Assembly (NCBI GenBank): GCA_963816795.1 | Contig: CAWFLT010000003.1 | Span: 210,202 to 274,201, forward strand | Origin: an uncultured Acidobacteriota bacterium | GTDB taxonomy: Bacteria > Acidobacteriota > Vicinamibacteria > Vicinamibacterales > SCN-69-37 | Direction: 5' to 3' | Length of the DNA: 64,000 nucleotides | Shown: positions 2,083 through 63,752 of the stretch, piece by piece | Layout: each line of letters opens with the position of its first letter | How positions within the stretch are numbered: position 1 is the stretch's first letter | Program-made: the position numbers and the translations under genes | Notes under the pieces: model-generated | Told to the model about the DNA's origin: nothing | Databases searched by the model: none | Seen by the model: the letters and a program-made list of their open reading frames with translations, nothing else

Positions 2083-3955
2083 ATGCGACGGCGACTGAGC
2101 GTGCTGGTTCCGGCACTTCTCGGCGTGGCGGTCACCGCCTGGACCGCCGCGGCGATGCAGCGGCGCGCGGTCGACGATGCCGCGCTGAGGAACGCGCCGA
2201 AGAACGCCAATGAATGGCTGACGGTCGGGCGTGACTATGCGGAACAACGCTATAGCCCGCTGACCCAGATTACGGCCGCGAACGTCAACCGGCTGGGCCT
2301 GGCCTGGTCCTACGAAGTCGGCGACGGAGGCGGTCCGCAGCAAGCGACGCCGCTCATGGCCAACGGCGTCCTCTACGGCATCACGAACTGGAGCATCGTC
2401 TTCGCGGTCGACGCCCGGACCGGCAAGGAGCTCTGGCGTTACGACCCGAAGGTGGATCGCTCGATCGCCGGGTTCGGAACGAGCCGGCTCTGCTGCGGCG
2501 TCAACAGCCGCGGTGTCGCGTTGTACGAAGGCAAGGTGATCGTGCCGGTGCTCGATGGCCGGCTCCAGGCGCTCGACACGGCCACGGGGAAGCTGCTCTG
2601 GTCGGTCATGGCGGTCCCGGCCGATTCCGTGTCGTACTCGATCACCATGGCGCCGCGAGTCGCGCGAGGCAAGATCTTCATCGGCAACGCCGGCGGTGAG
2701 TTTCCCCCGTACCGCGGCTATCTGTCGGCGTTCGACGTCAACACCGGCCGCGAGATCTGGCGCTTCTACACGACGCCCGGAGATCCATCCCAACCGTTCG
2801 AGAACGACGCGATGGCCAGGGCTGCGAAGACGTGGACAGGCGAATGGTGGAAGCTCGGCGGTGGCGGATCGATCTGGGATGGGATGGCGTACGACCCCGA
2901 CGCCAACCTGGTCTACGTCGGCACCGGGAACGGCACGCCGTGGTCGCAGGACGTCCGGCAGGGGAAGGCCACCGAGCATCTCGACAATCTGTATATCGCA
3001 TCGATCCTTGCGATCGATGCCGACACTGGCCGGTTGAAGTGGCACTTCCAGTGTACGCCGGCGGATCAATGGGACTTCGACGCCGTGCAGCACCTGATGC
3101 TCGCCGACCTGCGGATTGGCGGGCGGGCGCGCAAGGTGATCTTGCAGGCCAACAAGAACGGCTACTTCTATGTGATCGATCGGATCTCCGGCGAGTTCCT
3201 CTCCGGCGCGCCGGTCGCACCGGTGAGCTGGGCGCGCGGCCTCGATCCGAAGAGGCCGGCCGATCGTCAACGCCGAGGCGCACTACACCGCCGAGCAAGG
3301 GGTGACCATCTCGCCGCTCCAGGCGCACAACACCGCGCAGATGGCCTTCAATCCGGCGACGGGATTGGTCTACGTGCCGCTCGCCTCGGCGTCGAGCTTC
3401 TCGTTTACCGGCACCAACCATTTCGAAATCACCCCGGGGGCGCAAGCGTGGGGGCTGCGCGGCCGCGGCGACACCGGGCCGAGGCCGCCGCTCGCCGTGC
3501 CGCCGGCCTACGGTCCCGATCGCGGGCTGGCGCGCGGAAACACCGGCATCCTCTCGGCCTGGGATCCGGTGACGCAACAGGAGCGCTGGTACACCGCCGG
3601 TGGAGGACAGAGCGGCGGCGGCGCGCTGTCGACCGCGTCCAATCTCGTCTTCCAAGTCACGCCGCAGGGCCGGCTGTTGGCCTATACAGCGGACAAGGGA
3701 GAGAAGCTGCTCGACATCAGCAGCGGCCAGACCACGGGCATGGGGCCGCCGATGACGTATCTGCTCGACGGCAAGCAGTACATCGCCTTCATGGGCGGCC
3801 GCGGGATCCCGCCGGCGGGTAGCCGTGGCCTGCCTCCGCCCGCCGAGCCGACAACGGGCGCTGCCCCGCCCCTTCCTTCCCCGCCGCCGGCGAGCGCGCA
3901 GGTCTTGCCGCGGATGTACGTGTACACGCTCGACTCGCCGTTCGATAGCCGCTAG
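2083..3955 (+). CDS. PQQ-dependent alcohol (methanol/ethanol family) dehydrogenase; frame disrupted near 3252
   Basis: Signal peptide, vicinal Cys pair (SRLCCGVNSRG) and propeller repeats (ATPLMANGVLYG, DARTGKELWRY, DTATGKLLWS). The N-terminal 390 aa sit in ORF 2083.. and the remainder in ORF 3302..3955. The join ...GLDPK/GRPIVNAEAHYTAEQGVTISPLQ needs a 1-nt correction. Confidence 0.9.
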
Positions 3956-4045
3956 AGCCGTTTTCAGTTGGTGTAGCCGCCGGGCCCTCCGGGTGCCGTG
4001 GCGGCCACGATATTTCGTGACATCGACCAGGCGGAGCCGCTGCCG

Positions 4046-4708
4046 CTACCGATCGCCGCGAACGGGCGTGATGTGCAGCACAGACGCGACGCCGATCAGG
4101 TCCGCGATCGACTCCGCTTCGAGCTTTTCGAAGATGCTGTGGCGGTGAGCCTTGATCGTGCGCTCCTTGGTGCCGAGGTCGAACGCCACCTGCTTGTTCA
4201 GCTGACCGCTGATGAGATGGGCGAACACCTCCCGCTCGCGAGGTGTCAGCCGCTCGAATCTCGCCTGAACCTCCCGCGCATGCGCCCGGGCCGCCCGCTC
4301 GCAGGCGTCGCGGGCAATCGCGTGGCCAACGGCGGTGAGTAGTCGTTCACCAGGCACGGGCTTCGTCAGGAAGTCGACGGCGCCCGCCTTGATCGCCCGG
4401 ACGCTCATCGGGATGTCGCCATGGCCAGTCACAAAGACCACGGGCAGCACATCCACTGCCCTCGCCAACGTCTCATGGATCTCGAGGCCGTTGGCGTCGG
4501 GGAGTTGCACGTCGAGGAGGACGCACCCCGGCTGGCCGATCGGCATCCCGGCGAGAAACTCCGCCGCCGACGCGTAGCTCCTGACCGCGTATCCCGCCGC
4601 GCTCAACAGCCTGGTCGTCGCGCGCCTGGTGTCGTCATCGTCCTCGACGATGTGCACCAGGGGCTCGGCCGGCAGTGGCGGAATGGGGACGGGCCTGGTC
4701 CTGATCAC
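4046..4708 (-). CDS. FixJ/NarL (LuxR-type HTH) response regulator
   Basis: Receiver domain (VHIVEDDDD..., LLDVQLPDANG, FLTKP) plus a LuxR HTH (LTPREREVFAHLISGQLNKQVAFDLGTKERTIKAHRHSIFEKL). The GTG start overlaps the upstream stop (GTGA, 4705-4708). Confidence 0.9.
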   Translation of the reverse strand: MIRTRPVPIPPLPAEPLVHIVEDDDDTRRATTRLLSAAGYAVRSYASAAEFLAGMPIGQPGCVLLDVQLPDANGLEIHETLARAVDVLPVVFVTGHGDIPMSVRAIKAGAVDFLTKPVPGERLLTAVGHAIARDACERAARAHAREVQARFERLTPREREVFAHLISGQLNKQVAFDLGTKERTIKAHRHSIFEKLEAESIADLIGVASVLHITPVRGDR

Positions 4709-6327
4709 GACGGCGGCCGCGGCGGGTCTGCCGCCTCCTGACCCTTTTTGGGGACGGTGAGAGACATCGTGTGAGGGCGGAATGCGATCTGCGTGCCAGC
4801 GGCCTCGACCGCCGTCGTCACCTCGAAGAGCAGTTGTTGCTGGATCTCGAGAAATTGGTCCAGATCGCTCGCGAAGACGTACGCGACGACCTCGACCTCG
4901 AACGAGAACTCCGCCAGGCGGACAAACCGCACGCGCACCGATTTGCGGTCAACTGAGGGATGAGCCTCGAGCATGCCTCGGATGCCCTCGACCACGGCGC
5001 GCAGTTGTGCGGTCGTCGTCTCCGGGCGAATGCCGACGACGGGGTGGAACCAGAACTTGTCGCGCACGGAGAGCGTCTCGAGGCTGACACTCGCGACCTG
5101 GCTGTTCGGGACGCTCACGAGGGTGCGATCGGGCGTCCGAATGCGGGTCGAGCGCAGGCCGATGTGCTCGACGGTGCCGACCACATTTCCCATCTTCAGG
5201 ACATCGCCGGTCCGGACGGCCTGGTCGAAGATGAGCGAGGCGCCGGCAATCATGTTCTCGAGCGTCTTTTGCGCCGCGAGCGCCACAGCAATCCCCCCGA
5301 CGCCCAGTCCGGCCAGTGCCGGCGTGAGATTCAATCCGAAGTGGCGAAGCGTGATCAACACGCCGACGAGGACCACCAGGAAATCGAGCATTCTGCGAAG
5401 CACTCGCACCAGGGTCGCGGCGGCCGGCTGGTTCGAGCGAGGGAAACGACGCCGGATGTAGAGCTCGATCTCTCCGTTGATGAGAACCAGGAGCCAGACG
5501 ACCCCGATGACCGTCAGGAGGCTCGCCAGTTGAGACCAGATCTGCCGGATCAGGAACGAGAGCGGCAGGCTGGCCAGAAACCAGCGGATCGCGAACGCCA
5601 GGAAGAGTATCCGGATGGGAACGGGCAGCAGGTCGCGGGCGAACAGGTCGGAGTACCTCGCGAACCCGCGCCAGAGCGGACGAAGGAGCGGCGTCAGGAT
5701 CTTGTTCAGCAGCAGCGTGAGCAGGTAGAAGAGCGGAAGCCCGAGCAGAGCCGCCAGCAACTCGAACACCCGAATTCCGCCCACGCGCGTGCTGGTCAGG
5801 AATCGGGGAAGGTACCCGGCCCATCCAATCGTCACTTCCTCGTACAAGGCGGGGACCGAGCCCAGCGTCGCCTGAGAAAACAGCCAGACTGGCCCGCTCC
5901 TCCCGCTCGAGATACGCGCGACGATCACGTCGACATCACCGCGAGGACTGGCGATGGTTCCCACGATCTCGTGATCGAGCTTCAGCGGGTTCGAGCGCGA
6001 GCCTTCGGGCGCGTCGCTGATCTGCGAGATCCGGGCTGGGAGGCGCGCATCGAGCACGACGAACAACTGGTGAACCAGCTCGTCGGTGTCCCGGCCGCTC
6101 ACCCTGGCATCGAGGTACTGACGCGCGATTTCTGCCTCACCTCTGCGCGCGGCAGTCAGGAATCCTGTGACCGTTCCTCGCGGCGTGTCTCGACCGAGCG
6201 CGTCCTTGGGAACCTGAACTTGTGGTTCAGCTTGGGAAGAAGTCGCCTGCGCCAGCGCGTCAACTGGCCAGACGAGTGCCAGCACGCAGAGGCCGACGGC
6301 CCGCCACGCGCACCACCCCATCGTCAT
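4705..6327 (-). CDS. MscS-family mechanosensitive ion channel
   Basis: MscS core GVGGIAVALAAQKTLENMIAGASLIFDQAVRTGDVLKMGNVVGTVEHIGLRSTRIRTPDRTLVSVPNSQV. N-terminal signal-like MTMGWCAWRAVGLCVLALVWPVDALAQ. The ORF is open up to 6435, but that start would overlap the upstream gene, so I prefer the 6327 start. Confidence 0.85.
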   Translation of the reverse strand: MTMGWCAWRAVGLCVLALVWPVDALAQATSSQAEPQVQVPKDALGRDTPRGTVTGFLTAARRGEAEIARQYLDARVSGRDTDELVHQLFVVLDARLPARISQISDAPEGSRSNPLKLDHEIVGTIASPRGDVDVIVARISSGRSGPVWLFSQATLGSVPALYEEVTIGWAGYLPRFLTSTRVGGIRVFELLAALLGLPLFYLLTLLLNKILTPLLRPLWRGFARYSDLFARDLLPVPIRILFLAFAIRWFLASLPLSFLIRQIWSQLASLLTVIGVVWLLVLINGEIELYIRRRFPRSNQPAAATLVRVLRRMLDFLVVLVGVLITLRHFGLNLTPALAGLGVGGIAVALAAQKTLENMIAGASLIFDQAVRTGDVLKMGNVVGTVEHIGLRSTRIRTPDRTLVSVPNSQVASVSLETLSVRDKFWFHPVVGIRPETTTAQLRAVVEGIRGMLEAHPSVDRKSVRVRFVRLAEFSFEVEVVAYVFASDLDQFLEIQQQLLFEVTTAVEAAGTQIAFRPHTMSLTVPKKGQEAADPPRPPS

Positions 6328-6379: not shown

Positions 6380-7267
6380 TCAGATGCTGAGGCGTCCCTG
6401 CATGTCTGCGGTGATGTTCGCGGTGTAATTGGCAAATTCCGTGATTGCGTAGTTGCCTGACGGCTGTCGACTTTGCGCTGCGAACATCGCCCGATTGAAC
6501 TGCGTCACGATGGTATCGGCCGTAGTTAACCGGGCGTCGGCGAGAATGTCGAACCGCCTGTCGCCCGCCTGCAGATTGTCGACGGCCTCATCGAACCCGA
6601 CGTTTGCGTTGCTGCGTATCACTGAAGGATTCCCCTTCGACCACGCGATGTCGATGTCGTGGTTGCAGTGCCACTTGAATCCCTTGATCGGCTGGTGCCG
6701 ACCATCCGATCGCTCCACGACGAAGTAGGCGAGGAAGTCGCACTGGGATCGATAGGCCAGCAGGAAGTTCAATCGATCACGCCCGGCGTTACGCCGCTGC
6801 AACCGCAGCCGCCCGGCGGGCTGATCGGGCATCTCGACCGTAAAAGGCGTACCGTTGGGCGCGATCTTGCGAGGCAGGTAGAAGGGTGCCCACGGGGACT
6901 GCAGGCTGTCATTGGGGGAACAGTCCAGGAGCACTTGAAAGTTGAGTCCTGTCGTCGTCTCTTCGATGCAGCCGTCGCTATCCTTGAGGCCGGCGTAGAA
7001 GGCCGAGTGGAATTTGAAGGACGCGACTTGCTTCATGCCGATCACGACGTTGTTGCCGCGGATCACGCCCGTCGCCCTGGCACCCATGGCCGTCTGGCCG
7101 ACCGTGCGGGCGTTCAGATTCGTCCCGCTCGAGTATCGGAGGGATCCCTTGATGTCGGGAAACAGTTCATCCGGAATCAACAGGGAGGCACTGCCGTTGC
7201 CCCCTGGAAAAATCGGCGCCACAGTGAGCGACTCGAGTCGACTGCCGCCGCCGAGGTCGGTCGCCAT
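6380..7267 (-). CDS. hypothetical protein (295 aa), no family recognised
   Basis: Uninterrupted ORF with visibly lower G+C than its neighbours. No signal peptide and no motif I recognise. Its start lies 2 nt after the stop of the PG-binding gene. Confidence 0.6.
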   Translation of the reverse strand: MATDLGGGSRLESLTVAPIFPGGNGSASLLIPDELFPDIKGSLRYSSGTNLNARTVGQTAMGARATGVIRGNNVVIGMKQVASFKFHSAFYAGLKDSDGCIEETTTGLNFQVLLDCSPNDSLQSPWAPFYLPRKIAPNGTPFTVEMPDQPAGRLRLQRRNAGRDRLNFLLAYRSQCDFLAYFVVERSDGRHQPIKGFKWHCNHDIDIAWSKGNPSVIRSNANVGFDEAVDNLQAGDRRFDILADARLTTADTIVTQFNRAMFAAQSRQPSGNYAITEFANYTANITADMQGRLSI

Positions 7268-7269
7268 GA

Positions 7270-7740
7270 CTAGAGATAGACGGAGCGCTTCTGACTCGCC
7301 GGCGCCGCCAGGTCGAACTGGTTGAGCAGCGCCTCGCGGCCAGGATCCGGCGATTCGAGCCCCGGGTTCTGTTCGATGATCTGTTCGAGCATCTCGAGCG
7401 TGCCAGGGCCGACGAAGCCGTCGACCTTGAGGCCGTTCGCCTGCTGGAATTCTTTGACGACCTTTTCCGTCTCGCCGCCGAACACTCCGTCCGCACCCTT
7501 GCTGGACAGGGACTTGGGAAGCTTGAATCCAATGGACGCGAGAAGATCCTGCACCTGGGCCACGCCAGATCCCTTCGACCCGAGCGAAAGCGGCACTGGG
7601 CCGGTGACTTTCTGGAGTTGAGGATCATTGCCGAGTCGTCGAGTGCGCACCGGACCTCCCTCGCTACAGCTCATCGCGCTGGCTACTATCGTCAACGAGG
7701 GACAGCGACGCGCAGGCGCGCGGACCGCCGTCTGATTCAC
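7270..7740 (-). CDS. peptidoglycan-binding (PG_binding_1-like) domain protein
   Basis: GSGVAQVQDLLASIGFKLPKSLSSKGADGVFGGETEKVVKEFQQANGLKVDGFVGPGTLEMLEQI matches the PG_binding_1 repeat pattern. A GTG at 7740 overlaps the cytochrome stop (GTGA), and an internal ATG start is also possible. Confidence 0.7.
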   Translation of the reverse strand: MNQTAVRAPARRCPSLTIVASAMSCSEGGPVRTRRLGNDPQLQKVTGPVPLSLGSKGSGVAQVQDLLASIGFKLPKSLSSKGADGVFGGETEKVVKEFQQANGLKVDGFVGPGTLEMLEQIIEQNPGLESPDPGREALLNQFDLAAPASQKRSVYL

Positions 7741-9172
7741 CGCCGCGCTGGGGGCGGGCTGACCTCTGGGGCAGGAACGGGCGGACTGGCGAGCAAACGA
7801 CCGGCGGGTGTGGGCGGCGCCTCGATCTCCTTGTGGCAGTACTCGCAGTCCGCGTTAATCGTGGTGCCGTCTTTTGCCGTGAGCGATCCGTCGTGGCAGC
7901 GGACGCACCCGAACGACGTGGTGTGCCCGAGGTTGTCGGGATAGGTACCGAACGTGACTTTCATGGTGGGAAACACGTTTCGGCGGTAGATCGTCCTGCA
8001 GCGTGCTCACCGCCCCGGTGACCTGGGCATCCACGGCGCGGCCGCGTGATGTGTAGAACTTCCGCAACTCCTCGTCGATGACGCGCGCGCCGTCTTCCGT
8101 GGTCGGGTGACTCGCCTGCAGCAGGCGGACGGCTTCACGCCGGACGAACGGCAGCCCGCGGTCGATGCGTCCCGCGGCAATCGCCGCATCCACTGCCTGC
8201 TCGGCGGCCGGCGAGATCCGATGAGCCGGGACGTTGTGGCAGTCGATACAGTCCATCGTCCGCCAGGTGCCCTTCGCGAGCTCCTCGGGCGTGGTGTCCG
8301 GGGCCGTGTACTCGCGGACCCGGCCCTGCGCATCCGTGTACTTGACGAACCGAATGGTCTGGCGTTCGGTGTCCGTGTGGAGGAATTCGATGCGCACGCG
8401 CGGATCGGCGTGCCAATGGATGGCGCGGCCGCTCGGCGTCGGCGCGCCCGGACCGCCCAGGTACATCTGCAGGATCGTCCTCGTCTCCGTGTTCGTCTCG
8501 TCGTCCGCGTAGGCCCGATAGACACGAACGACGTCGCCGGACGCCTTGCCCGACCAATGACACGCCCCGCAAATCTCCTGCGCGGGACGCATATCGGCAA
8601 CCCCTGGGATCGGCCGCGGATAGTGGCCCGTGACCACGTGATAGAGCTGCCGCAGGCCGTTCATCTTGTACTTGACGAATGCGCGGCCCCCTTCGCCGAT
8701 GTGGCATTGCACGCAGGTGACCTGCTGAGTGCGAAGCGCCCTGCCACGCTGTGAACTGCGGGTGCATCGGCGTGTGGCACGTCTGACCGCAGAACGCCGG
8801 GGATTCCATCGAGTGGAGCCCGCCATATCCCGCAACCAGCACAATCGCGACATTGACGGCCGTCAGCGCGACGACCATCAGGACCCGGCGACGGGTCACC
8901 GGTGACCTGAAATCGAAGACGGGCCACTCCCGTACGGCCTCGGGGTGCCGCAGCTGCCGGCGGCGCTCGAGCCACATGCCGAACGGCATCAGCAGCAGGC
9001 CGAGTACGAAGAGCGCCGGCACCGCGACGAAGACGACGAGCGCGGCGTACGGGTTATCGAAGAGGCCGAGCAGGAGCCCGGCGAGCAGGGCGAGAAACGC
9101 CACGGCGCTCACCGTGGTCAACACGGCGCCCGCGATTGAGATCGGATGTCGGGCCAGATTGCGGCTCGCCAC
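7737..9172 (-). CDS. membrane-anchored hexahaem c-type cytochrome, NapC/NirT(CymA)-like; 2 frame disruptions (~8730, ~7992)
   Basis: Pieces from ORFs 8135..9172, 7855..8853 and 7737..7976 join colinearly. There are two N-terminal TM helices. CXXCH-type motifs: CGQTCH, CVQCH, CGACH, CIDCH, CVRCH, CEYCH. Confidence 0.8.
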
Positions 9173-9183
9173 GCAACAACGCC

Positions 9184-9552
9184 CTATTTCTTCAGGCTCT
9201 GCATGTAGGCGACGAGCGCATCGATGTCAGCGGGCGGAAGCTTGTCGTACTTCTTCGCCATCGGCGGCTTCTTCGTGGAGCTCACTTTCTTGGCCATCAC
9301 GATCGGCTCGACGATCCACTGGCGGGTGTCGTCAGCCGAGAGCTTCGAGCCGACGCCGTCCAGCGGGCTCTGCTTCCCACCCTTGCCGGCGATGGTATGG
9401 CACTGCGTACACTTCTGGGCCTGGTAGACCTGCTGGCCTTTCTTGATCAGCGCGGCGTCCTGTGCACGCACCACGCGTGGCGTGCCGACCACAAGCGCGG
9501 CGGTGAGCGCGGCCATGAAGAGCCCACCGGTAATCACGACTTTCCGCATCAT
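9184..9552 (-). CDS. periplasmic monohaem class I cytochrome c
   Basis: Signal peptide MMRKVVITGGLFMAALTAALVVG. Single CTQCH motif with a distal Met region. AAGGAGG lies just upstream of the ATG pair. Confidence 0.85.
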   Translation of the reverse strand: MMRKVVITGGLFMAALTAALVVGTPRVVRAQDAALIKKGQQVYQAQKCTQCHTIAGKGGKQSPLDGVGSKLSADDTRQWIVEPIVMAKKVSSTKKPPMAKKYDKLPPADIDALVAYMQSLKK

Positions 9553-9580
9553 GCCTCCTTGTCTTGCGATCGGTGAAAGC

Positions 9581-11798
9581 TTACCACCGATACACAACGC
9601 CGAACATCGTCGAGTGGGCGGTGTAGGGCCGATACACGTAGCCCATGACCAGCGAACTCGGCTGCACGATGCCGTTGACCACGCTCGGGTCGAACGCGAA
9701 GTCGTAGATGCTCAGCGGCTCGTACAGGTACGAGAACGACGCGGTGAGGCGGCTGGAGAGCCGGTACCGCACGTCGAGGTGCAACTGCTGCAGCTTGTTG
9801 AACACGTTGGGCAGCTGATTGGGCGCCGGGATGGGGCTGCCCACCGGGATGGTGTAGAGGTAGTTCCCCTCTGCGTGGCTGAAGTCGTACGAGAACCGGA
9901 TTTCAGTGTTCTGCCCGATGCGTGGAGGGCTGGCGTAGATCGAGAAGTAGTGCACCGTCTCGGTCGAATCGGCGGTCCAGTCGCGCAGCGGATCGTTGAA
10001 CTGGGCCGTGGACGAATCCCCCTCGTGCGAGCGCTGCAGCCCGGCGTAGCGCTCGTAGTTGTAGCGTCCCGCCCGCGCCCAGGCCGTTCGGCCGCTGGAA
10101 ATCAGCCGCGAGCGAGAACGTACGGCCGCTGGAATCCTGCAGGCCGTAGAAGCTGTTGCTGAATTCGTCCTTGAGGATGCCGGTGCGACACGCTGAACGT
10201 CCAGGCGTCGGACGGCACGATGTCGGCCTGGACCGTGAAGCGATTCCTCGTCCGATCGGCGAGGTCGTAGTGGCGCATCTCGGGATGCTCGCCAATGTCC
10301 GTCAGCAGCGTTTCGTCGAGCCCTGAACCGGTGCGATCGCCGAACTCGTATTGCGTCCGGAACGTGAGCCACGAGGTTCCGACGGCATCGGCCGACACGC
10401 GGAACACGTTCTCGCCGCTCGACTCGACGATCCGCGCATCGTAGCCGTTCCCGTTGTGCGAGTAGCCGAACGTGAGCGCGAACGGCATCAGCTTCGTCCA
10501 GGTGGCGTCGCCGTCGAAGGTCGTCCGGCTGTGCGCGTAGAGGTCCGGACCGCCCGTGGGCGTCGTCGACACGTTCCCGTCGTAGGCGACGTACTGCGTG
10601 ATGCTCGTCGCCGGCATGTGGTTGGCGTAGGTGTAATTGCGGAAGCGCGCGCCGAACCGCCAGTCGGTCGTGCGCGACGTCAGATTCAGGTTCGTCGAGA
10701 ACACGTGCGCCTTGGCGTCGGCGTTGGCGCGCGGCAGCGCGATCGGCGCGACCGTCGAATTGATGGTGAACGGCTCCAGCGGCTCGTCGTTGCTCCACAC
10801 TCCGTAGGAGAAGGAGCCAGTCACCTGGGTCCTTTGCGCCAGCTTGGTGTACCCGCCGAAGCTGATGGTCTGCGCCGAGTTCGACGGCCAGAGGGACATG
10901 CGTCCGCGTCCGGAGTTGCCAGCGACGTCGTCGAGGCGGAGCGGGCTGTCCCAGACCAGCGTCGGCGCGAGGTTGTCGAACCACGACCCGCTGTAGGCGA
11001 CGCGCAGCATGTTGCGCGGGTTCGTCCACTCGGTGCCGATGGTGAAGTCGTTCGCGCGCGACTCGTAGGGAAGGGCCACCTCGACGTCGTTGCTGAACCC
11101 GAAGCTGGCTCCCCACGGCAGCTCGCCGCCGTGTTTCTGCGTGATGAAGCTGGCCGTGACGTCGAGGTTCGTCTTCGGCGTCGCGACCACATCGACGCGA
11201 CCGATGTCGCGCCGCTCGTGCAGCTCGAACTGCGGCGCGAGCGGGACGTAGGCGTTGAGATTGGCCTGGCCGTTCTGGATCGCGCGCTGCGTCGCGTCGT
11301 CGAGCACCAGCGTGCCGCCGCTGCCCGTATAGGGCGTCATCGTGTCGACGCTGTAGAACTGCGGGATCTGCTGGAAGCTCCCGGTGACCGACAGCTTCCC
11401 AACACGGTTGTAGTTGGCGAAGTACTCCTGATCGCGCCAGCCCAGGTTGTTCGCGCGCGCGTCGAAGGTGTAGGCGCCGGCGGGCTGCGCGAACGCATAG
11501 CGGAAGCCGGAGAAGAGCAGCCCGTCGCGGACGTCCTGGTAGCGCTGAAAGCGCGCCGGGTCGCCGTCGATACTGGTGGCGCGGCCGCCGATGAAGAGCT
11601 CCCGGTCGGTCAGCGCGAACAGGCTGCGCGCGTATCCTCGGCCGCGGTCGGGCGCGCGGGGCTGGCGGCCGGCGTCGGCGCTGCCGGTTGTGCCGGCTTC
11701 TGCGTCGGCGGCGGCGCTCCCGCCTGGGCCAGCGCCCGCTCCGGCGCGGCGGCGGCGCCAACGAAAAGGATCAGCGCAATGAACGAGAGGCGTCGCAT
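9581..11798 (-). CDS. MtrB/PioB/MtoB-family outer-membrane porin; about 3 frame disruptions (~11625, ~10190, ~10085)
   Basis: The signal peptide ([25 protein letters not shown]), a middle 412-aa ORF (10102..11340, open further upstream) and the C-terminal part (...[16 protein letters not shown]...[18 protein letters not shown]) join colinearly. It is about 739 aa of beta-strand-rich sequence immediately downstream of a decahaem gene. Confidence 0.8.
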
Positions 11799-11811
11799 GA
11801 TCGTGTCTCCG

Positions 11812-12878
11812 TTACCGCATGTAGAACTGGCCGGACGGGTGGTTCGATCCGTGGACCATCGAGTGGCAGTTCACGCACGACCGTGCCGAACATCCGGTTG
11901 CTCTTGCTGACGGTGATCTGGTCCTTGTCGTAGAGCGTCGCCGGGTGCTTGCTCGCGATGTGGCAGCGCTGGCAGAGCATCGGCATGCGGACCACGAGCA
12001 TCCGGTCGTTGGAGGACCCGTGCGGGTCGTGGCACGTCGCGCAGTTCTCGCGCACCGGCGCGTGCTCGAAGAGCATCGGGCCGCGCATCTCGGTATGACA
12101 GCGTCGTGCACAGCTCGGCGACCGAGCTGCCCGTCTTGAGATTCTTGACGTTGGTGATCGAGCCGTGCGGGTTGTGGCACGAGCTGCAGGACATCTTTCC
12201 TTCGCGCACCGGCATGTGCGCGACGGCGCGTTCAGTCTTGGTCACCTGCAGTCGGTGGCACGTCGCGCAGACCTGCGTTTCGGTCGGCTTCACCAACTGC
12301 CGCTCCGGCGACTTCGGGCTGTGCACGCTGTGACACGTCGCGCACGACAGGTTGCGCCGCTCGTGCGCGCTGCCTTCCCAACCGGCGTGCACGCCGCGAT
12401 TGTGGCAGGAGAGACACGTCTCGTTGAGTTCCGCCGGCTTCAGCGCCTTGAGCTTCGCGATCTTCCCCTTGGCGTCGTCGTCGATGTGTGCCTGGCCCGG
12501 ACCATGGCAGTTCTCGCACCCGGTGCTGGCGACCGGCGCCCGTGGGTTCTTGGTGAGCCAATGTTGCGTGTTCTTTATACTGGCTTCCTGCTCAGCGTGG
12601 CACTCTATGCAGGCAGCGTTGCCGGCATAGCCGGTCTGCGGCGCCGTTGGCCGGGTGACGACCACTGTTGCTGGCGGCCCTTGTTTTGCTGGCGGCGCCT
12701 GGATCGGAGAGCTCGCGACGGAGGACTGCAGGCCGATGACCGCGCCCCACACCAAGGCCACCGTGCTGAAAAACAGTACGGTGCTGACCTTCAGTCGGCC
12801 GCGGTCGCGAGGGCGCATCAGGTTGAGTGCAAAGATAACATGTATTCCGGCTGCCAAACCCATTGCCCTAAAGGCCAA
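11812..12878 (-). CDS. MtrA/DmsE/PioA/MtoA-family periplasmic decahaem cytochrome c; 2 frame disruptions (~12101, ~11891)
   Basis: Ten haem motifs once joined: CIECH, CENCH, CLSCH, CATCH, CATCH, CSSCH, CTTCH (restored by removing one base at ~12101), CATCH, CQRCH, CVNCH. The start may instead be the internal MRPRDRG... at ~12818. Confidence 0.85.
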
Positions 12879-12921
12879 TTGCTTTTCTTATGAAGGCTGT
12901 GCTAAGCGCGCCGCTCCCTGC

Positions 12922-14511
12922 TCAACCAAGCAGCGCCGCGACGATCTGCACGAAGAGGATCTTCACGAGCACCATGGAAGGAAAGATCGTCGCGTAGCCG
13001 ATGTCGGGCCGCTCCGTCGGCACGGCACGGCTCGCGTAGGCCAGGATGGCGGGATTGCCGGTGGCGCCCGACACGATGCCGAACAGATCGCCGACAGGGA
13101 TCGACGAACAACCGTCCCACGATCATCGGGACCAGGACGAGCGCAAGAACGATCAGGGCGCCGAGCAAGACGAACGTCAATCCGGTCTCGGCAATCGTCG
13201 CGGCGAACGCGGGCCCGGAGGCCATCCCCACCTGGGCCAGGAACACGGTGAGCCCGAAGTTTCGCAGCACGAGGTTCGCCGACAACGGGAGCGTCCACAC
13301 GATGCCGGACGTCCGGCGGACCTTGCCGAGCACGAGGGCGACGAGCAGCACCGCGGCCAGCCCCAGCTTGATCGCGCCGACACCAGGGATCGGAAGCGGA
13401 ATCATCCCGACGAGCAGGCCGAGCGCGGCGCCGACGCCGATGGAGATGTAGCTGAAGTCGGCGGCGCCCTTGATGGAGTCGCCATAGAAGCTGCGCACCG
13501 CATCGAAATGCTCACGACCGCACAGCACGCCCACGCGATCGCCGAACTCGAGCACCAGGTCTTCGTCGGGCAGCAGATCGGTGTCGCCGCGGCGCACCTG
13601 CAAGTAGCGGTAGTCGAATCCGCCAGGAATCTTCAAGCGGCTGAGCGGCATCCCGACGACGCTGCGGCGGGACGCGTAGACGCGAACGTAGTCGAGATCG
13701 GTTCGGTCGGCCGCGACCTGGCCAGCCACGCCTTCGCCGATCAACGCGCGTGCGTTGTCGATCGCGGCGGGATCGGTCCCGACGATGAGGAGCACGTCGT
13801 TCGCCTCGAGTCGGGTCGCCGGCGTGGGCACGTGGTTCCGCTGCGCTCGACGGATGGCGACGACCTGGACGCCGCGCACCGAGGGTCCGCTGAAGCTCCG
13901 GGAGCGGCTTGCCGAACAACGCGGCGTTCTGCACGCTGACTTCGACCGGCTGGATCCGGCGGCCGGCTGGTGGCTCTATCTTCGGTTTGAAGATCGCCAG
14001 GTAGGCATACATGCACAGGATCGGCCCGGCGACGCCGAACGGATACGTGACGCCATAGCCGACCGCGGCCTCCTGGCTGTGCAGCGCATCGAGGACGGCC
14101 TGGAGCGCGGGCGTGTTCGTCCCGGAGCCCGCGAACATCCCGAGCGCCTGGGGCAGGCTCGCCGCGCCGGCCTGGAAGATCGCGATCGAGACCAGGCCCG
14201 CGGCGGCCACACCGCAGGAGCCCCGCGACATTGGCCTTCAACCCGTCGGCGCTGGTGAGGCCACGGTACCATTCGGCGCCGTATTGGATGCCCACGCAGT
14301 AGAGGAAGAGCATCAGGCCCAGGGTGCCCACCAGCCCTGGCGCCGTGGACTTCGGCGCGAAGGCGCCGAACGCGAGGCCGACGAAGAGCACCGCCCCCGA
14401 GCCGAGCGAAAACCCTTTGAGGTTGATTTCGCCGATCAGGTAGCCGGCCGCAATGGTCAGGAACAGCGCCGCGAGCGGCGAGGATTCGAGGAGTGCCCTG
14501 AGCCAGTCCAT
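12922..14511 (-). CDS. AAE-family (YidE/YbjL-like) transporter with central TrkA_C/RCK_C domains; 3 frame disruptions (~14225, ~13880, ~13095)
   Basis: N-terminus MDWLRALLESSPLAALFLTIAAGYLIGEINLKGFSLGSGAVLFVGL. Central RCK_C-like region (VQVVAIRR...LEANDVLLIVG; LQVRRGD...LVLEFGDRVGVL). C-terminus ...GDLFGIVSGATGNPAILAYA...VQIVAALLG* is recovered by hand translation. Confidence 0.8.
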
Positions 14512-14538: not shown

Positions 14539-15546
14539 CTACTGAACGAGCTTGCCGGGCAGATATCCGGTGTTCGCCGCCACGTACTGGGCGCGCAGAA
14601 GCGCGGCGACGTCCTCGACGTGCGTCGCGTCCTTGAGACCGCGAATCGCGTCGACCGAGTCGAAGCCGTTGGCGGCGAGCCAGCGGGCGAGCCCGTCGGT
14701 CATCGTCGCGATGTGCTCCGGTCCGTGCCGGAGCAACGCCGAGGTCGTCATTACGACATCGGCGCCGACGAGCAGGTACTTCACGACCTCGACCTCCGTC
14801 TCGACGCCCCGGCTGCCCGCGAGCGAACACCCGAGGCGGCGCGACAAGAGGGCGATCCACACGAGCGAGAGCGGCAGTTCGGCGGCCGTCGACAACGGGA
14901 GCGAGCTCGTCACTCGAAGCGTCTTGAGGTCGATGTCGGGGGCATAGAAGCGGTTGAACAAGACGAGTCCGTCCGCGCCGGCTCGCACCAGCTCGGCCGC
15001 CATATGCGGCAGCGAGCTGAAGTAGGGCGCGAGCTTGACGGCGATCGGAAGGCGCACATTTGAGTCGACCTCCCGAATGATCTCCAGAGAGCGCTGTTCC
15101 ACCTCGGCGCCGCTGACGGCGGGATTGACCGGGAGCGAGTAGACGTTGAGCTCGATCGCCGCGGCCCCCGCCTGTTCGAACGCGCGCGCGTGCTCGATCC
15201 ATCCCTCGGAGGTCGTGCCGTTGAGGCTGGCGATCACCGGGATGTCGAGCGCTTCCGACGCACGGCGCAGCGTCTCGAGATACCCGGACACCCCGCCGTC
15301 ATAGTCGGGAAGCTCAGGGAAATACGAGCCGGTCTCGGCCTGACTGTTCGAGCCGTGCTCGGTATACCGGGCATACGCGTCGTCCTCCGCCCTGATCTGC
15401 TCCTCGTAGAGCGAGAACATCACGACGGCGGCGGCGCCGGCATCCTCCAGACGCCGCATGCCGTCGACCGTCGCGGTGAGCGGCGACGCCGACGCCACGA
15501 TCGGATGCGCGAGCTGAAGGCCGAGATAGCGTGTGGCGAGCGTCAT
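14539..15546 (-). CDS. dihydroorotate dehydrogenase-like (class 1 DHOD / dihydropyrimidine dehydrogenase PreA-like) FMN protein
   Basis: MTLATRYLGLQLAHPIVASASPLT...IELNVYSLP...LPIAVKLAP...GADGLVLFNRF is a DHOD-type TIM-barrel pattern. The ATG overlaps the nifJ stop (ATGA at 15543-15546). The ORF upstream of this ATG lies inside nifJ and is discounted. Confidence 0.85.
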   Translation of the reverse strand: MTLATRYLGLQLAHPIVASASPLTATVDGMRRLEDAGAAAVVMFSLYEEQIRAEDDAYARYTEHGSNSQAETGSYFPELPDYDGGVSGYLETLRRASEALDIPVIASLNGTTSEGWIEHARAFEQAGAAAIELNVYSLPVNPAVSGAEVEQRSLEIIREVDSNVRLPIAVKLAPYFSSLPHMAAELVRAGADGLVLFNRFYAPDIDLKTLRVTSSLPLSTAAELPLSLVWIALLSRRLGCSLAGSRGVETEVEVVKYLLVGADVVMTTSALLRHGPEHIATMTDGLARWLAANGFDSVDAIRGLKDATHVEDVAALLRAQYVAANTGYLPGKLVQ

Positions 15547-18500
15547 GACGGCACGTCCTGCCAGTGCGGGTGGAACCGGCTGCCGTCGCGCGCGGCCAGA
15601 TCCTCGTACACACGGTAGCGCTCCTCGAGCGCGAGTTGCGCCTGTTGGAGCATGCGCTTCGCGGCGTCCGGGTGCGTCTGCGTGAGCGACTTGAAGCGGA
15701 CCTCGTTGTAGCGGTACTCCTCGAGCGGAATGCGTGGCCGCGGCGAGTCGAGCCGGAACGGGTTCATCCCTCGCCCGCGCATCGTCGGGTCGTAGCGGAA
15801 CAGCGGCCAGTACCCCGAGGCGACGGCGCGCGCCGCCTGCTTCATGCCGTGGCGCATGTCGATGCCGTGGGCGATGCACTGCGAGTACGCCAGGATCAGG
15901 GACGATCCCGAGAACGCCTCAGCCTCCCGCATGGCGACGAGCGCCTGCTCGTTGTTGGCGCCCATGGCGATTTGGGCGACGTAGACGTTGCCGTAGGTGA
16001 TCGCCATCAGCGCCAGGTCCTTGCGCGGCGTCGTCTTGCCCGCGGCGGCGAACTTGGCGGATGCGCCGAGCGGCGTCGCCTTCGACGCCTGGCCGCCGGT
16101 GTTCGAGTAGACTTCGGTGTCCAGCACCAGGATGTTCACGTCCTTCCCAGCGGAGAGGACGTGGTCGAGGCCGCCGTAGTCGATGTCGTAGGCCCAGCCG
16201 TCGCCGCCGACAATCCACACCGATCGCCGCACCAGGAAGTCCGCCAGGGCCAGCAGATTCGCCGCCTCCTGGTCGGTCGATCCCGCGAGCTTCGCCTTCA
16301 CCGCGGCCACGCGCTCGCGCTGCACGCGGAAGTCCGACTCGGTCACCTGCGGCGCCTGGAGCACGGCCGTCACGAGCGCCTCACCCACACGCGGCGCCAG
16401 CTTCTGGAGCAGGACGCGAGCCTGCGCGGTCTGGCTGTCGACGGCGAGGCGATAGCCGAGGCCGAACTCGGCGTTGTCCTCGAACAGCGAGTTCGACCAC
16501 GCCGGTCCGCGGCCCTCGGCGTTGGCCGCCCACGGCGTCGTCGGCAGGTTCGCGCCGTAGATCGACGAGCAGCCCGTCGCGTTGGCGATCTGCAGCCGAT
16601 CGCCGAAGAGCTGCGACATCATCTTGAGATACGGCGTCTCGCCGCACCCGGCGCAGGCGCCCGAGAACTCGAACAGCGGCTCCAGGAACTGGACGCCGCG
16701 CACGTTGGCGAAATTGACCCGGGTGCGGTCGGCCCACGGAAGCGTCTCGAAGAAACTGACGCTCTCGCGGCCGGCCTCGAGGTGCTCGAGCCGGTCTTTC
16801 ATGTTGATCGCCTTGATGGCGGCGTCGACCGGGCTGTGCGCAGGACAGTTCTCCACGCAGACCCCGCACCCCGTGCAGTCTTCGACATACACCTGCAGCG
16901 TGAAGCGCGACTCGGGATAGCCGCGGGCGTTGATCGGCGCCGCCTTGAAGCTGATCGGCGCGCCCGCGAGACGGTCCTCGTCGTAGTACTTGGCCCGAAT
17001 CACGCTGTGAGGACAGACGATCGCGCACTGGCCGCACTGGATGCAGAGGTCCGATTCCCAGACCGGCACCTCGTCCGCGATGTTCCGCTTCTCGTAGCGA
17101 GCCGTTCCCGTGGGGTACGTGCCGTCCACCGGAAGCGCACTCACGGGAAGCGTGTCCCCGCGCAGCCCGAGGATCGTCGCGGTCACGTTCTGCACGAACT
17201 CGGGCGCCGACTCGGGCACGAGCGTCAGCCGGATGCGCTTGCCGGCCACCTTCGCCGGGACGCGCACCTCGTGCAGGTTCGCCAGCGCGCTGTCGATCGC
17301 GGCGAAGTTCTTCTGGACGATCTCCTTGCCCTTCTTCGCGTACGTGCGTTCCGTCGCCTTCTTGATCGCCTCGATGGCCGTGTCACGAGGCATCACGCCG
17401 GACAGCGCAAAGAAGCACGTCTGCAGGATCGTGTTGACACGCGATCCCAGGCCGAGTCCGGCGGCCACGCCGGACGCATCGATGACGTGGACCTTGAGCC
17501 CCTTGTCGATCACTTGCTTCTGCACTTCACGCGGCAGCTCGGTCCAGACGTCATCTGGCGCGTACGGGCTGTTGATCAGCACGGTCGCGCCCGGCGCGGC
17601 GGCCGCGAGCGTGTCGAGTTTGTAGAGGAAGTCGAACTTGTGGATGCCGACGAAGCTCGCCGACTTCAGCAGATACGGCGCCCGAATCGGTCGCGGGCCG
17701 AAGCGCAGGTGCGAGATCGTGTAGGAGCCTGACTTCTTCGAATCGTAGACGAAATAGCCCTGGGCATAGCGGTTCGGGTCCGCGGCCAGGATCTTCGTGG
17801 AGTTCTTGTTCGCGCCGACCGTGCCGTCGGCGCCGAGCCCGAAGAACAACGCCCGGACGACCTCCGGCGGCTCGATGTCGAAGCTCGAATCGACCGTGAG
17901 GCTGGTGTGCGTCACATCGTCGTTGATTCCGACGGTGAAACCTCGCTTCGGGTCAGGCTTCTTCAACTCGTCGAAGACCGCCTTCGCCATGGCTGGATCG
18001 AAATCCTTCGAAGACAAACCGTACCGTCCGCCGATGATCACGGGCATCGACTGGATGCGTCCGGCGGCGAGCGCTTCGGCAAATGTGGTGACGACGTCGA
18101 GATACAGCGGCTCACCGGGTCCGCCGGACTCCTTGGTTCGGTCGAGTACGGCGATCCCGCTGACGGTCGTCGGCAGCGCCGCACGAAAGCGTTCCGCGTC
18201 CCAGGGCCGGTAGAGCGCCACGTGGAGCACGCCGACCTTTTCGTCGTGCGCGTTCAGCCAGGCCGCGGTCTCGTCGAGCACCTCGACGGCCGAGCCGATC
18301 ACGATGACGACGCGATCCGCCTCGGGATGGCCGCTGTAGCGGAACAGATGGTACGGCCGGCCCGTGAGCTCGCCGACGCGATCCATCGCCCGCTGCACGA
18401 TCTCGGGCATGCGGGCGTAGTAGGGGTTCGAGGCTTCGCGGGCCTGGAAGAACGTGTCGGGGTTGTGTGCGGTGCCTCGGATGACCGGCCGCTCCGGCGT

Positions 18501-19124
18501 GAGCCCGCGCGCCCGGTGAGCGCGCACCAGCTCGTCGTCGATCGCGGCCCGGATCTGCTCGTCCGGAATCAGGCTGATCTTGCTCTCTTCGTGCGACGTC
18601 CGGAACCCGTCGAAGAAGAACATCACCGGCACGCGCGCTTCGAGCGTGGCCACCTGCGCCACGAGCGCCAGATCGTGCGCCTCCTGTACGGACGACGCGG
18701 CCAGCATCCCCCAGCCGACCATCCGCGCGCTCATCACGTCCGAGTGGTCGCCGAAGATCGACAGGGCCTGCGTCGCGATCGCTCTCGCCGCGATATGGAA
18801 GACGCAGGCGGTGAGCTCGCCCGCAATCTTGTACATGTTGGGGAGCATGAGCAGCAATCCCTGCGAGGCGGTGAAGGTCGTGGTGAGGGCGCCGCTCTGG
18901 AGCGCGCCGTGCACAGCGCCGGCCGCGCCTCCTTCCGATTGCATCTGCTGGATGGACGGCACCTGCCCCCAGATGTTCTTGATCCCCTGCGCCGCCCAGG
19001 CGTCGGCCAGCTCCGCCATCGTGGACGACGGCGTGATCGGGAAGATCGCGAAGACCTCGTTGACGCGGTAGGCAATATGGGCGGCCGCGGTATTGCCGTC
19101 CATGACGACCGACTTAGGGGGCAT
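15543..19124 (-). CDS. nifJ: pyruvate:ferredoxin (flavodoxin) oxidoreductase, single-polypeptide type
   Basis: 1193-aa intact ORF starting MDGNTAAAHIAYRVNEVFAIFPITPSS. Two ferredoxin-type clusters (CIQCGQCAIVCP, CTGCGVCVENCP). TPP-binding region GGDGWAYDIDYGGLDH. Confidence 0.97.
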   Translation of the reverse strand: MPPKSVVMDGNTAAAHIAYRVNEVFAIFPITPSSTMAELADAWAAQGIKNIWGQVPSIQQMQSEGGAAGAVHGALQSGALTTTFTASQGLLLMLPNMYKIAGELTACVFHIAARAIATQALSIFGDHSDVMSARMVGWGMLAASSVQEAHDLALVAQVATLEARVPVMFFFDGFRTSHEESKISLIPDEQIRAAIDDELVRAHRARGLTPERPVIRGTAHNPDTFFQAREASNPYYARMPEIVQRAMDRVGELTGRPYHLFRYSGHPEADRVVIVIGSAVEVLDETAAWLNAHDEKVGVLHVALYRPWDAERFRAALPTTVSGIAVLDRTKESGGPGEPLYLDVVTTFAEALAAGRIQSMPVIIGGRYGLSSKDFDPAMAKAVFDELKKPDPKRGFTVGINDDVTHTSLTVDSSFDIEPPEVVRALFFGLGADGTVGANKNSTKILAADPNRYAQGYFVYDSKKSGSYTISHLRFGPRPIRAPYLLKSASFVGIHKFDFLYKLDTLAAAAPGATVLINSPYAPDDVWTELPREVQKQVIDKGLKVHVIDASGVAAGLGLGSRVNTILQTCFFALSGVMPRDTAIEAIKKATERTYAKKGKEIVQKNFAAIDSALANLHEVRVPAKVAGKRIRLTLVPESAPEFVQNVTATILGLRGDTLPVSALPVDGTYPTGTARYEKRNIADEVPVWESDLCIQCGQCAIVCPHSVIRAKYYDEDRLAGAPISFKAAPINARGYPESRFTLQVYVEDCTGCGVCVENCPAHSPVDAAIKAINMKDRLEHLEAGRESVSFFETLPWADRTRVNFANVRGVQFLEPLFEFSGACAGCGETPYLKMMSQLFGDRLQIANATGCSSIYGANLPTTPWAANAEGRGPAWSNSLFEDNAEFGLGYRLAVDSQTAQARVLLQKLAPRVGEALVTAVLQAPQVTESDFRVQRERVAAVKAKLAGSTDQEAANLLALADFLVRRSVWIVGGDGWAYDIDYGGLDHVLSAGKDVNILVLDTEVYSNTGGQASKATPLGASAKFAAAGKTTPRKDLALMAITYGNVYVAQIAMGANNEQALVAMREAEAFSGSSLILAYSQCIAHGIDMRHGMKQAARAVASGYWPLFRYDPTMRGRGMNPFRLDSPRPRIPLEEYRYNEVRFKSLTQTHPDAAKRMLQQAQLALEERYRVYEDLAARDGSRFHPHWQDVPS

Positions 19125-20902: not shown

Positions 20903-21027
20903 GGCTCGCCCTCAGCGCTGGCTCGTCATCGCGCTCATCCTGACAGTGGGTAGAGTTATCCTACGAAACGCACAGCCGGTACGTCTATCGCCCTTTGGTG
21001 CAAGAGACCACACGCGTGCTCCGCTCC

Positions 21028-25825: not shown

Positions 25826-27360
25826 CTTGGTACGGGAAATCGAAGCGCAGATTGCGGGCGCCAGAGCGGCGGCGGCAAAGCAGACCGTCGGGATCATCCG
25901 CGAGATTGGCGACGGCGTCGCCAAGGTCGAGGGGCTGGCCGATGTGATGCTGAACGAGATGCTCGACTTCGGCCGCGGCATCACGGGCCTCGCGCTCAAC
26001 CTCGAAGAGACCGAAGTCGGCGTCATCATCCTCGGCGACTACACGCAGCTCCAGGAGGGTGACGAGGTCAAAGCGACCGGAAAGCTGCTGCAGGTGCCGG
26101 TCGGCAAGGGCTTGCTCGGCCGCGTGGTCAACACACTCGGTGAACCGATTGACGGGAAGGGCCCGATTGCCAGCACCGAGGCCTATCCCGTCGAAAAACT
26201 CGCGCCGGGCATCATGCGGCGCCGTCCAGTCGGCCAGCCGGTGCAGACCGGCATCATGGCGATCGACGCGATGATCCCGATCGGGCGCGGCCAGCGCGAG
26301 CTGATCATCGGGGACCGTTCCACGGGCAAGACGACGATCTGTATCGACACGATGATCAGTCAGGCGCAGCTCAACAAGGCGGCGGAGGCCGCCGGCGATA
26401 CCACGCATCGCCCGCTCTATTCCATTTACGTCGCGATCGGCCAGAAGCAATCGACCGTCGCCCGGATCGTCTCGGCGCTCGAAGAGGCCGGCGCATTGCC
26501 GTACTCCATCATCGTCGCCGCGCCCGCCTCGGATCCCGCCGCGAGCCAGTATCTGGCGCCGTTTGCCGGGGCGGCGATGGGCGAATGGTTCATGGACCAT
26601 GGCATGGACGCGTTGATCGTGTACGACGACCTCTCCAAGCACGCGGTCGCGTATCGCCAGGTCTCGCTCGTACTCAAGCGGCCGTCAGGTCGCGAGGCCT
26701 ATCCGGGGGATGTGTTCTACCTGCACAGCCGGCTGCTCGAGCGCGCGGCGCGCGTCGGCGAACAGTACGGCGACGGTTCGCTCACCGCCCTGCCGATCAT
26801 CGAGACCCAGGCGGGAGACGTGTCCGCGTACATTCCCACGAACGTCATTTCGATCACGGACGGGCAGATCTTTCTCGAGACCGATCTGTTCTACCAGGGG
26901 ATTCGCCCGGCCATCTCGGTCGGGATCTCGGTGTCGCGCGTCGGGTCGGCCGCGCAGATCAAGGCCATGAAGCAGGTGGCCGGGCAGCTCAAGGGCGATC
27001 TCGCGCAGTTTCGCGAGCTGGCGGCCTTCGCGCAGTTCGGGTCCGATCTGGATGCCGGCGACGCAGGCGAAGATCGATCGCGGCAAGCGGATCGTCGAGA
27101 TCTTCAAGCAGCCGCAGTACCGCCCGATTCCCGTGGAGGTCCAGGTGGCGGTGATCTGGGCCGTGCAGAACGGGTACATGGACGACGTCCCGGTGGAACG
27201 AATCAAGGAGTTCCAGGCCGGGTGGACAGACTTCCTGACCACGCGCAAGGCCGAGCTGCTCGGCACGGTCGCGACAGAACGCACGTTGAGCACGGAGCTG
27301 ACGGCGACGCTCAAGGCGTCGGCCGATCAGTTCAAGCAGACCTGGAAAGCGTCGAAATGA
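25818..27360 (+). CDS. atpA: F0F1 ATP synthase subunit alpha; 1 frame disruption (~27057)
   Basis: GDRSTGKTT (Walker A), [30 protein letters not shown]. After SDLDA the frame moves +1 to [21 protein letters not shown]...KASK*. The shift is an extra G in GCCGGCG. The 807-aa ORF fusing alpha to gamma is an artefact of this shift. Confidence 0.93.
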
Positions 27361-28220: not shown

Positions 28221-30225
<2,005 letters not shown>

Positions 30226-48574: not shown

Positions 48575-48659
48575 GGTCTCCCGGCGCCTGGCAAATCAGC
48601 TTACCGTAGGACGCGCTCGAGCCTTCGCTGGCCGGTGGAGGCGAGTGTCAGGCGCCCGA

Positions 48660-60546: not shown

Positions 60547-60560
60547 TTGTAGATCAAGAG

Positions 60561-60757: not shown

Positions 60758-60789
60758 TTAGAGGTCTTGGGTTGGAGTAGGATGGCGCC

Positions 60790-63742: not shown

Positions 63743-63752
63743 CCGTCCAGTA

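Follow-up and report, generated by a model that had tools for sequence, protein, structure and literature searches.

The described systems closest to the locus reported here are the Mto cluster of Sideroxydans lithotrophicus ES-1 (mtoA-mtoB-mtoD-cymA/imoA), the PioAB(C) system of Rhodopseudomonas palustris TIE-1, the MtrCAB complex of Shewanella (PDB 6R2Q) and the inner-membrane cytochrome ImcH of Geobacter sulfurreducens (GSU3259). ImcH is a menaquinol-oxidising cytochrome for high-potential acceptors in Geobacter (10.1101/2023.05.03.539133). As of 2018, only Fe(III) reducers were known to harbour homologues of it, and a survey of that year found no mtrAB or mtoAB genes adjacent to any imcH (PMC6295460), while Baker et al. 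(2022) covered only MtrC-containing clusters (PMC8805035). A 2026 study of metagenome-assembled genomes (MAGs) from Sterkfontein ghost-rock and groundwater reported "Group 2" clusters, in which a small decahaem cytochrome lies beside a 25–36-strand porin; an inner-membrane cytochrome resembling ImcH or NapC/NirT is encoded in six of these eight clusters, and many of the MAGs with porin-cytochrome complexes are Acidobacteriota (PMC13264449). Here, we analysed a 64-kb stretch of DNA (the window) from a soil bacterium of the Vicinamibacterales (Acidobacteriota), which carries a four-gene module predicted to be an Mto-like conduit with an ImcH-type quinol dehydrogenase.

The genes were read by three-frame translation of positions 13000..7600 together with tblastn searches using the intact proteins of a related MAG. 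Four tightly packed genes were found on the minus strand at 12818..7737, with intergenic gaps of 11–28 nt, which agrees with the original prediction of four adjacent genes on one strand. They would encode a periplasmic decahaem cytochrome of the MtrA/MtoA/PioA/DmsE type (11812..12818, start possibly at 12878; ~334 aa after repair, spread over three frames), an outer-membrane MtrB/PioB β-barrel (9581..11798; ~738 aa after repair, four frame pieces), a periplasmic monohaem class I cytochrome c (9184..9552; 122 aa, intact, with a signal-like N-terminus, CTQCH and Met98) and an inner-membrane cytochrome of the ImcH family (7737..9172; ~477 aa after repair, three frame pieces). The haem motifs in these genes number 10, 0, 1 and 6 (CX3CH plus five CXXCH), respectively. 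No haem motif was found in any other predicted coding segment of the window, and the cluster is therefore not a chance pattern. An MtrC-type surface cytochrome was found neither in the window nor in the 10-kb flanks of the module on the contig of a sister strain. The scan for promoters and terminators returned nothing exceeding the shuffled expectation.

Joining the three frames of the decahaem gene yielded ten CXXCH motifs (CIECH, CENCH, CLSCH, CATCH, CATCH, CSSCH, CTTCH, CATCH, CQRCH and CVNCH), with CTTCH straddling a frame-shift site; members of this family have ten such motifs in ~300–350 aa. The protein passed the DmsE-family model TIGR03508 (252.9 bits; cut-off 192.2), so that the 10-haem MtrA/DmsE-type cytochrome foreseen for this position held after correction; on the GSU2203-family model it scored 251.5 bits, under that model's own cut-off of 325. 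Residues 61–334 aligned with MtrA (6R2Q_A) at an E-value of 3.6e-64, with the ten motifs all in register, and a hydrophobic signal-like segment was seen at residues 11–29.

The neighbouring barrel, which had been anticipated as an MtrB/PioB protein of about 739 aa, matched Pfam PF11854 (MtrB_PioB) end to end, at profile positions 3–635 of 635 (264.7 bits; cut-off 23). It shared 73–91% identity with more than 100 intact proteins carrying Vicinamibacterales names, and its C-terminus reads ...VVYRW. An intact close homologue (P0005) matched MtrB (6R2Q_B) by sequence at an E-value of 6e-7. The AlphaFold2 model of P0005, of low confidence with a predicted local distance difference test (pLDDT) score of 57.4, was all-β with ~24 long strands plus short ones; the large barrel of MtrB has 26 strands. 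In a Foldseek search, this low-confidence model also found 6R2Q_B as its best match (E-value 5e-16), at template-modelling scores of only 0.42–0.45, while 22-strand TonB-dependent receptors followed nine orders of magnitude behind. The decahaem and barrel genes are 13 nt apart in the window, and the same adjacency was seen in at least 58 of 80 related loci; here and below, locus counts refer to the best 80 of 271 relatives of the ImcH-like protein found in a scan in which each species was represented by a single genome. The family models and the 6R2Q alignment thus bear out the central claim made beforehand, namely an MtoAB/PioAB-like porin-cytochrome module with monohaem and membrane hexahaem partners.

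The third gene encodes a single CTQCH motif and matched Pfam PF00034 with 51.7 bits, as expected for the monohaem class I cytochrome c that had been proposed. Met98, within a KKPPM motif, was conserved in 99% of 78 homologues and no second histidine was conserved, and the protein is predicted to be of the His/Met type. MtoD is a bis-His monohaem cytochrome with a potential of +155 mV (PMC4412085). A PDB search with the window protein at E≤10 gave 56 matches, none of them described as MtoD or from Sideroxydans. The earlier view of this protein as the counterpart of MtoD may therefore stand for its presumed role, but not for its haem ligation or detectable similarity. In 79 of the 80 related loci, the gene for this protein immediately precedes the ImcH-like gene.

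The fourth gene had been described as a two-helix, six-haem NapC/NirT-like protein. The six haem motifs were confirmed; the hydropathy profile, however, displayed three N-terminal helices rather than two, at residues 17–35, 44–62 and 97–115, and an AlphaFold2 model (pLDDT 56) placed helices at 10–34, 43–75 and 91–122. A CX3CH motif (FCGQTCH) at residue 128 directly follows the third helix, and CXXCH motifs start at 154, 202, 309, 423 and 443; members of the ImcH family have five to nine CXXCH motifs, conserved in spacing, besides the CX3CH. Three helices, a CX3CH after the third helix and further CXXCH motifs are the features by which Zhong and Shi defined ImcH homologues (PMC6295460). According to the same authors, GSU3259 has helices at 13–35, 45–67 and 100–122 and motifs at 132, 156, 205, 311, 428, 448 and 486 (PMC6295460); in their numbering, the motifs of the window protein fall at 130, 155, 203, 310, 424 and 444, within 1–4 residues of GSU3259. 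The window protein has six haem motifs and not the seven of GSU3259 because the C-terminal haem is missing, and six-haem proteins of 450–455 aa from Acidobacteria MAGs have been counted as ImcH homologues (Table S3 of PMC6295460).

The residues around the first haem presented the same likeness. In an alignment of 24 relatives (A1), C128, C132 and H133 were invariant, and E123 (≥90%), K169 (invariant) and Q175 (≥90%) stood at −10, +36 and +42 from H133. In GSU3259, conserved E127 of the third helix, K173 and Q179, the last a distal ligand, are found at the same −10/+36/+42 offsets around His137 of haem 1 (Pimenta et al., 10.1101/2023.05.03.539133). The Pfam NapC/NirT model PF03264 matched only residues 95–185 (36.2 bits), a stretch that takes in helix three and the haems nearest to it, and so limited a match has also been described for ImcH. 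The NrfH model was not passed (57 bits; cut-off 134). Neither Pfam nor NCBIfam contains an ImcH model, and the PDB holds no related structure. A profile search recovered 965 clusters of the ImcH-like family at E≤1e-30; among the best 150 representatives, 66 had the 1+5 motif layout and 29 the 1+6 layout. By these hallmarks, the membrane cytochrome is predicted to be ImcH-type and not CymA-type. An enlarged CymA was considered and rejected, given three helices and six motifs in ~477 aa against one helix and four CXXCH in ~190 aa. As a member of the ImcH family, the protein that the original prediction had regarded as an oversized CymA is of normal size.

A proline-rich C-terminal tail of ~25 aa (EAPPTPAGRLLASPPVPAPEVSPPPARR; window 7737–7811) is absent from the ~450-aa relatives; it is probably real because the sister assembly has no indel there. 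The NCBI and JGI annotation pipelines already name the module proteins, with JGI labelling the ImcH-like one a tetrahaem NapC subunit. One family representative (P0258) has the same length and motif layout as Solibacter Acid_0432, a link unconfirmed by any accession. At another locus (L085, 2889–6791), a seven-haem ImcH-like protein (P0252) is encoded directly after a small cytochrome c and a CbcL-like gene, the latter combining a multihaem domain with a Ni_hydr_CYTB b-type domain, and members of the ImcH-like family are therefore found in cytochrome clusters of several kinds.

Like the Mto cluster, the module brings these four roles together at a single locus and has no MtrC. The inner-membrane part differs, being ImcH-type (~455–477 aa) where Mto has the one-helix tetrahaem CymA/ImoA; the monohaem protein is His/Met rather than bis-His, and the host is an acidobacterium of a heterotrophic lineage. 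The mtoA-mtoB-mtoD-cymA component set named in the original prediction was thus recovered as a set of roles, whereas the proteins filling the last two are unlike MtoD and CymA. The ImcH hallmarks and the unlikeness to MtoD are our grounds for describing the module as a putative Mto-like conduit with an ImcH-type quinol dehydrogenase. The pio system is also a two-component MtrAB-type conduit without MtrC; however, PioC is a high-potential iron-sulfur protein where the module has a cytochrome c, no inner-membrane cytochrome is encoded in the pio operon, and the decahaem protein of the window is of MtrA-like length, unlike PioA. With MtrCAB, the likeness lies in the alignment of the decahaem protein to MtrA and in the match of the barrel family to MtrB by sequence and fold search, whereas the module has neither an MtrC-type decahaem cytochrome nor CymA, and its barrel is only ~16% identical to MtrB over the fold-search alignment. 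With GSU3259, the membrane cytochrome has in common the three N-terminal helices, the CX3CH after the third, a near-identical motif spacing and the E/K/Q offsets; in contrast to GSU3259, it adjoins mtrAB-like genes, and its presumed partner is a monohaem cytochrome where Geobacter has the trihaem Ppc proteins. The likeness to Group 2 is at the level of gene maps only, the form in which Group 2 was described. The pairing of ImcH with an Mto-like conduit is absent from the 2018 survey and is briefly mentioned in the 2026 MAG study.

Frame shifts in three of the four genes had been noted beforehand, and seven single-base indels were identified. The decahaem gene has one-base insertions at ~12102 and ~11883, the barrel gene a missing base at ~11633 and extra bases at ~10187 and ~10066, and the membrane cytochrome gene extra bases at ~8724 and ~7993; the monohaem gene is unbroken. 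Each break is a single-base indel because the tblastn pieces abut in the query with no residues lost. Seven shifts in 5.1 kb are about three times the window average, as would be expected if the shifts were real and three of the four genes were pseudogenes in this strain, a reading that we regard as exceedingly improbable. Frame switches were counted across the window by a codon-usage Viterbi parse, on the same strand and with gene boundaries excluded. At least 25 were obtained, including switches in the essential atpA and atpD. These genes (atpA, 25834–27338, shift at ~27041; atpD, 28283–29788, shift at ~29218) gave full Pfam domains only with two frames joined; the error in atpA is an inserted G (GCCG read as GCCGG) and that in atpD is a GG run read as GGG. 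Both genes are intact on ENA contig_85543 of the sister strain (96–98% identical), and the repaired AtpD is 100% identical to the intact protein encoded there.

The module sites themselves pointed the same way. An independent sister assembly (L084, 96% identical) has the correct length at all seven shift sites and about ten different indels of its own within the module. A further relative (L001) agrees with the correct length at five of the seven sites, and both extra bases of the decahaem gene are absent from it. The repaired frames contain no stop codons. The ratio of nonsynonymous to synonymous substitution rates (dN/dS) against an Illumina MAG (L002), in which all four genes are intact and in the same order, was 0.21 for the barrel, 0.18 for the decahaem, 0.26 for the ImcH-like and 0.33 for the monohaem gene. 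The unbroken neighbours gave higher values, 0.37 for the pyruvate:ferredoxin oxidoreductase (PFOR) gene and 0.47 for a dihydroorotate dehydrogenase-like (DHODH-like) gene. Because frame switches occur window-wide and reach atpA and atpD, the sister assembly is correct at the seven sites, and dN/dS stays at 0.18–0.33, the seven frame shifts are assembly errors and the pseudogene reading was rejected; the inactive relic that the original prediction had envisaged as a possible outcome gave way to artefacts.

The excess of shifts in the module is not peculiar to it, since error clusters are also seen at 47.7–51.3 kb and 57–64 kb, which again argues against decay. These dense clusters (47706–51301, minus strand; 57560–61714, plus strand; 61833–64000, minus strand) contain genes for a MacB/FtsX-like permease, a large TonB-dependent-type outer-membrane protein and ABC transporters, and no frame switches were found in 14.5–27 kb and 30–47 kb. 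Identity to the sister strain is 95.9% within the module, as against 97–99% elsewhere, and the errors possibly cluster where co-assembled strains differ. At three of the module sites (~12102, ~10066 and ~7993) the same error was observed, GAC read as GACG, and related strains differ between C and G at two sites. This hints that the consensus went wrong at polymorphic sites or that base calling erred systematically.

The module is common in Vicinamibacterales. Almost all of the best 80 loci carry Acidobacteriota or Vicinamibacterales MAG labels, with three (L028, L030 and L039) labelled "Bifidobacteriaceae", and the names of the relatives uphold the earlier view that the host is not a proteobacterium. 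All four genes were detected in the order decahaem-barrel-monohaem-ImcH in 58 of the 80 loci, and six more loci are cut by contig ends. In other loci, the MtrAB pair is inverted (2/80), a monohaem match is missing (1/80) or the monohaem and ImcH-like pair occurs by itself (10/80). Three MAGs have two module loci each. The decahaem and barrel genes closest to those of the window (94% nucleotide identity) are in L001 at 2630–5825 on the plus strand; the monohaem and ImcH-like pair of that locus (8081–9728, minus strand) is inverted, ~2.3 kb downstream and only ~40% identical. The two halves of the module thus seem to have been exchanged independently.

The genes found next to the module in relatives include those for PFOR (18 loci), a selenocysteine-containing FdnG-like enzyme (15), AckA (8) and pyruvate formate-lyase (6). 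PFOR and the DHODH-like gene are directly beside the module in 18 of the 80 loci. A run of PFOR, the DHODH-like gene and a GltD-like Fe-S flavoprotein beside the module, with phosphotransacetylase (PTA) beyond, was seen in the window (14539–19124 and 19257–20905, both minus strand) and in L083 (2935–3867). In the window, a frame-shifted Asp-Al_Ex/TrkA-C transporter gene (12929–14493) is inserted between the module and the PFOR and DHODH-like genes. On the other side, a 295-aa protein (6380–7267, minus strand) without a Pfam match, identical in the sister strain, follows a PG_binding_1 protein; these two downstream genes were excluded as parts of the module since other loci show no link between them and the module. 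Exact-protein look-ups of the window PFOR and of the monohaem protein, the latter with three alternative starts, returned no record, and the 295-aa protein led to the contig of the sister strain.

The FdnG-like enzyme bears on another reading of the conduit, in which the MtrAB-like pair would work as DmsEF does and supply a surface reductase specific for a soluble compound, for instance dimethyl sulfoxide or iodate, instead of minerals. The decahaem protein does pass the DmsE-family model, and in 15 related loci the module has a molybdopterin oxidoreductase as its neighbour, among them upstream and divergent in L003, L007, L008, L009, L017, L040, L053 and L062 and downstream in L042, L045 and L047; it is absent from the window. 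Its open reading frame carries a twin-arginine (Tat) signal and is split at a TGA codon inside ...EHQARL*HSPTV.... The motif EHQARL-U-HSPTV is typically found in formate dehydrogenases that contain selenocysteine; these enzymes donate electrons to quinone and are not surface reductases, and the oxidoreductase looks like one of them. In addition, neither the window nor L084 contains DmsAB-like genes, and we consider a DmsEF-type function very unlikely.

With middling confidence, we instead regard the module as a functional, intact Vicinamibacterales operon that would provide a complete electron path across the envelope, most likely in the outward direction. Electrons would be exchanged between menaquinol and the ImcH-type protein, cross the periplasm on the monohaem cytochrome and pass the outer membrane by way of the decahaem protein, which would be threaded through the barrel. 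In outward flow, electrons of menaquinol may be drained to fairly high-potential extracellular acceptors when oxygen is scarce, the candidates being Fe(III) or Mn(IV) minerals and humic substances. Our lean towards this direction comes from the oxidation of menaquinol by ImcH, the occurrence of its homologues in Fe(III) reducers, the anaerobic energy genes in the neighbourhood (in the window, PFOR and PTA were counted towards outward flow) and the 2026 MAG study, in which such modules in heterotrophs are read as electron export (PMC13264449).

The opposite direction is possible and forms the more serious alternative. Here, electrons from Fe(II), minerals or an electrode would enter through the MtoAB-like complex and pass over the monohaem cytochrome to a terminal oxidase, with the ImcH-like protein feeding a share back to menaquinone, a branch that has been proposed for the Mto pathway. 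The missing MtrC-type cytochrome would suit this direction, as MtoAB and PioAB have none either, and so would the carrier, a class I cytochrome that has one haem and a conserved methionine ligand and whose role parallels that of MtoD (+155 mV, PMC4412085). The ten loci with a monohaem and ImcH-like pair but no MtrAB fit a general quinone:cytochrome c link. MtoA and PioA do not form a function-specific clade (PMC8805035), and homology is therefore compatible with inward flow. In contrast, quinol oxidation is the only activity so far shown for ImcH, whose haems lie between −350 and −150 mV (PMC6295460; 10.1101/2023.05.03.539133), and the neighbouring genes point to anaerobic carbon oxidation. 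In the loci read, neither carbon-fixation nor oxidase genes are linked to the module, and the monohaem protein has no detectable similarity to MtoD.

Several observations weigh against an ImcH-equipped, outward-directed module. The characterised MtrAB pairs without MtrC, MtoAB and PioAB, work in Fe(II) oxidation, and a class I monohaem cytochrome with His/Met ligation is expected to have a positive potential, which fits inward flow to an oxidase better than a transfer of electrons to a low-potential decahaem protein. What the module does in this clade is predicted from its genes. The ImcH assignment was made through the published layout of GSU3259, its motif spacing and residue positions, and the AlphaFold2 models of the P0005 barrel and the ImcH-like protein are of low confidence (pLDDT 56–57). 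The family models proposed in advance as a check on the barrel were divided, since PF11854 was matched but NCBIfam TIGR03509 gave the repaired barrel 216.7 bits, under its cut-off of 240.05, for a match spanning model positions 13–662 of 662. Intact relatives of the barrel scored 226.9, 236.4 and 246.2 bits on TIGR03509, and the barrel clade therefore straddles the cut-off.

For future work on this and similar assemblies, the frame shifts of the module should not be taken as gene decay. Vicinamibacterales are among the commonest soil Acidobacteria. We propose, tentatively, that they use a conserved and sometimes duplicated operon of ImcH, a His/Met cytochrome c and an MtoAB-type conduit as a high-potential chain for extracellular electron transfer. 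If true, this chain would be distinct from both the Mtr/CymA route of Shewanella and the ImcH/Ppc/Pcc route of Geobacter, and an ImcH-type dehydrogenase would for the first time be seen to connect directly with a conduit of the Mtr type. It would also show that nature combines two kinds of component, ImcH-type and Mtr-type, that have been investigated in different model organisms. The Vicinamibacterales would then be an unrecognised player in the redox cycling of iron and manganese or of humic substances in soil. An abundant, poorly cultured soil order would possess a dedicated means of exchanging electrons with minerals or humic matter, which would bear on the cycling of iron, manganese and carbon.

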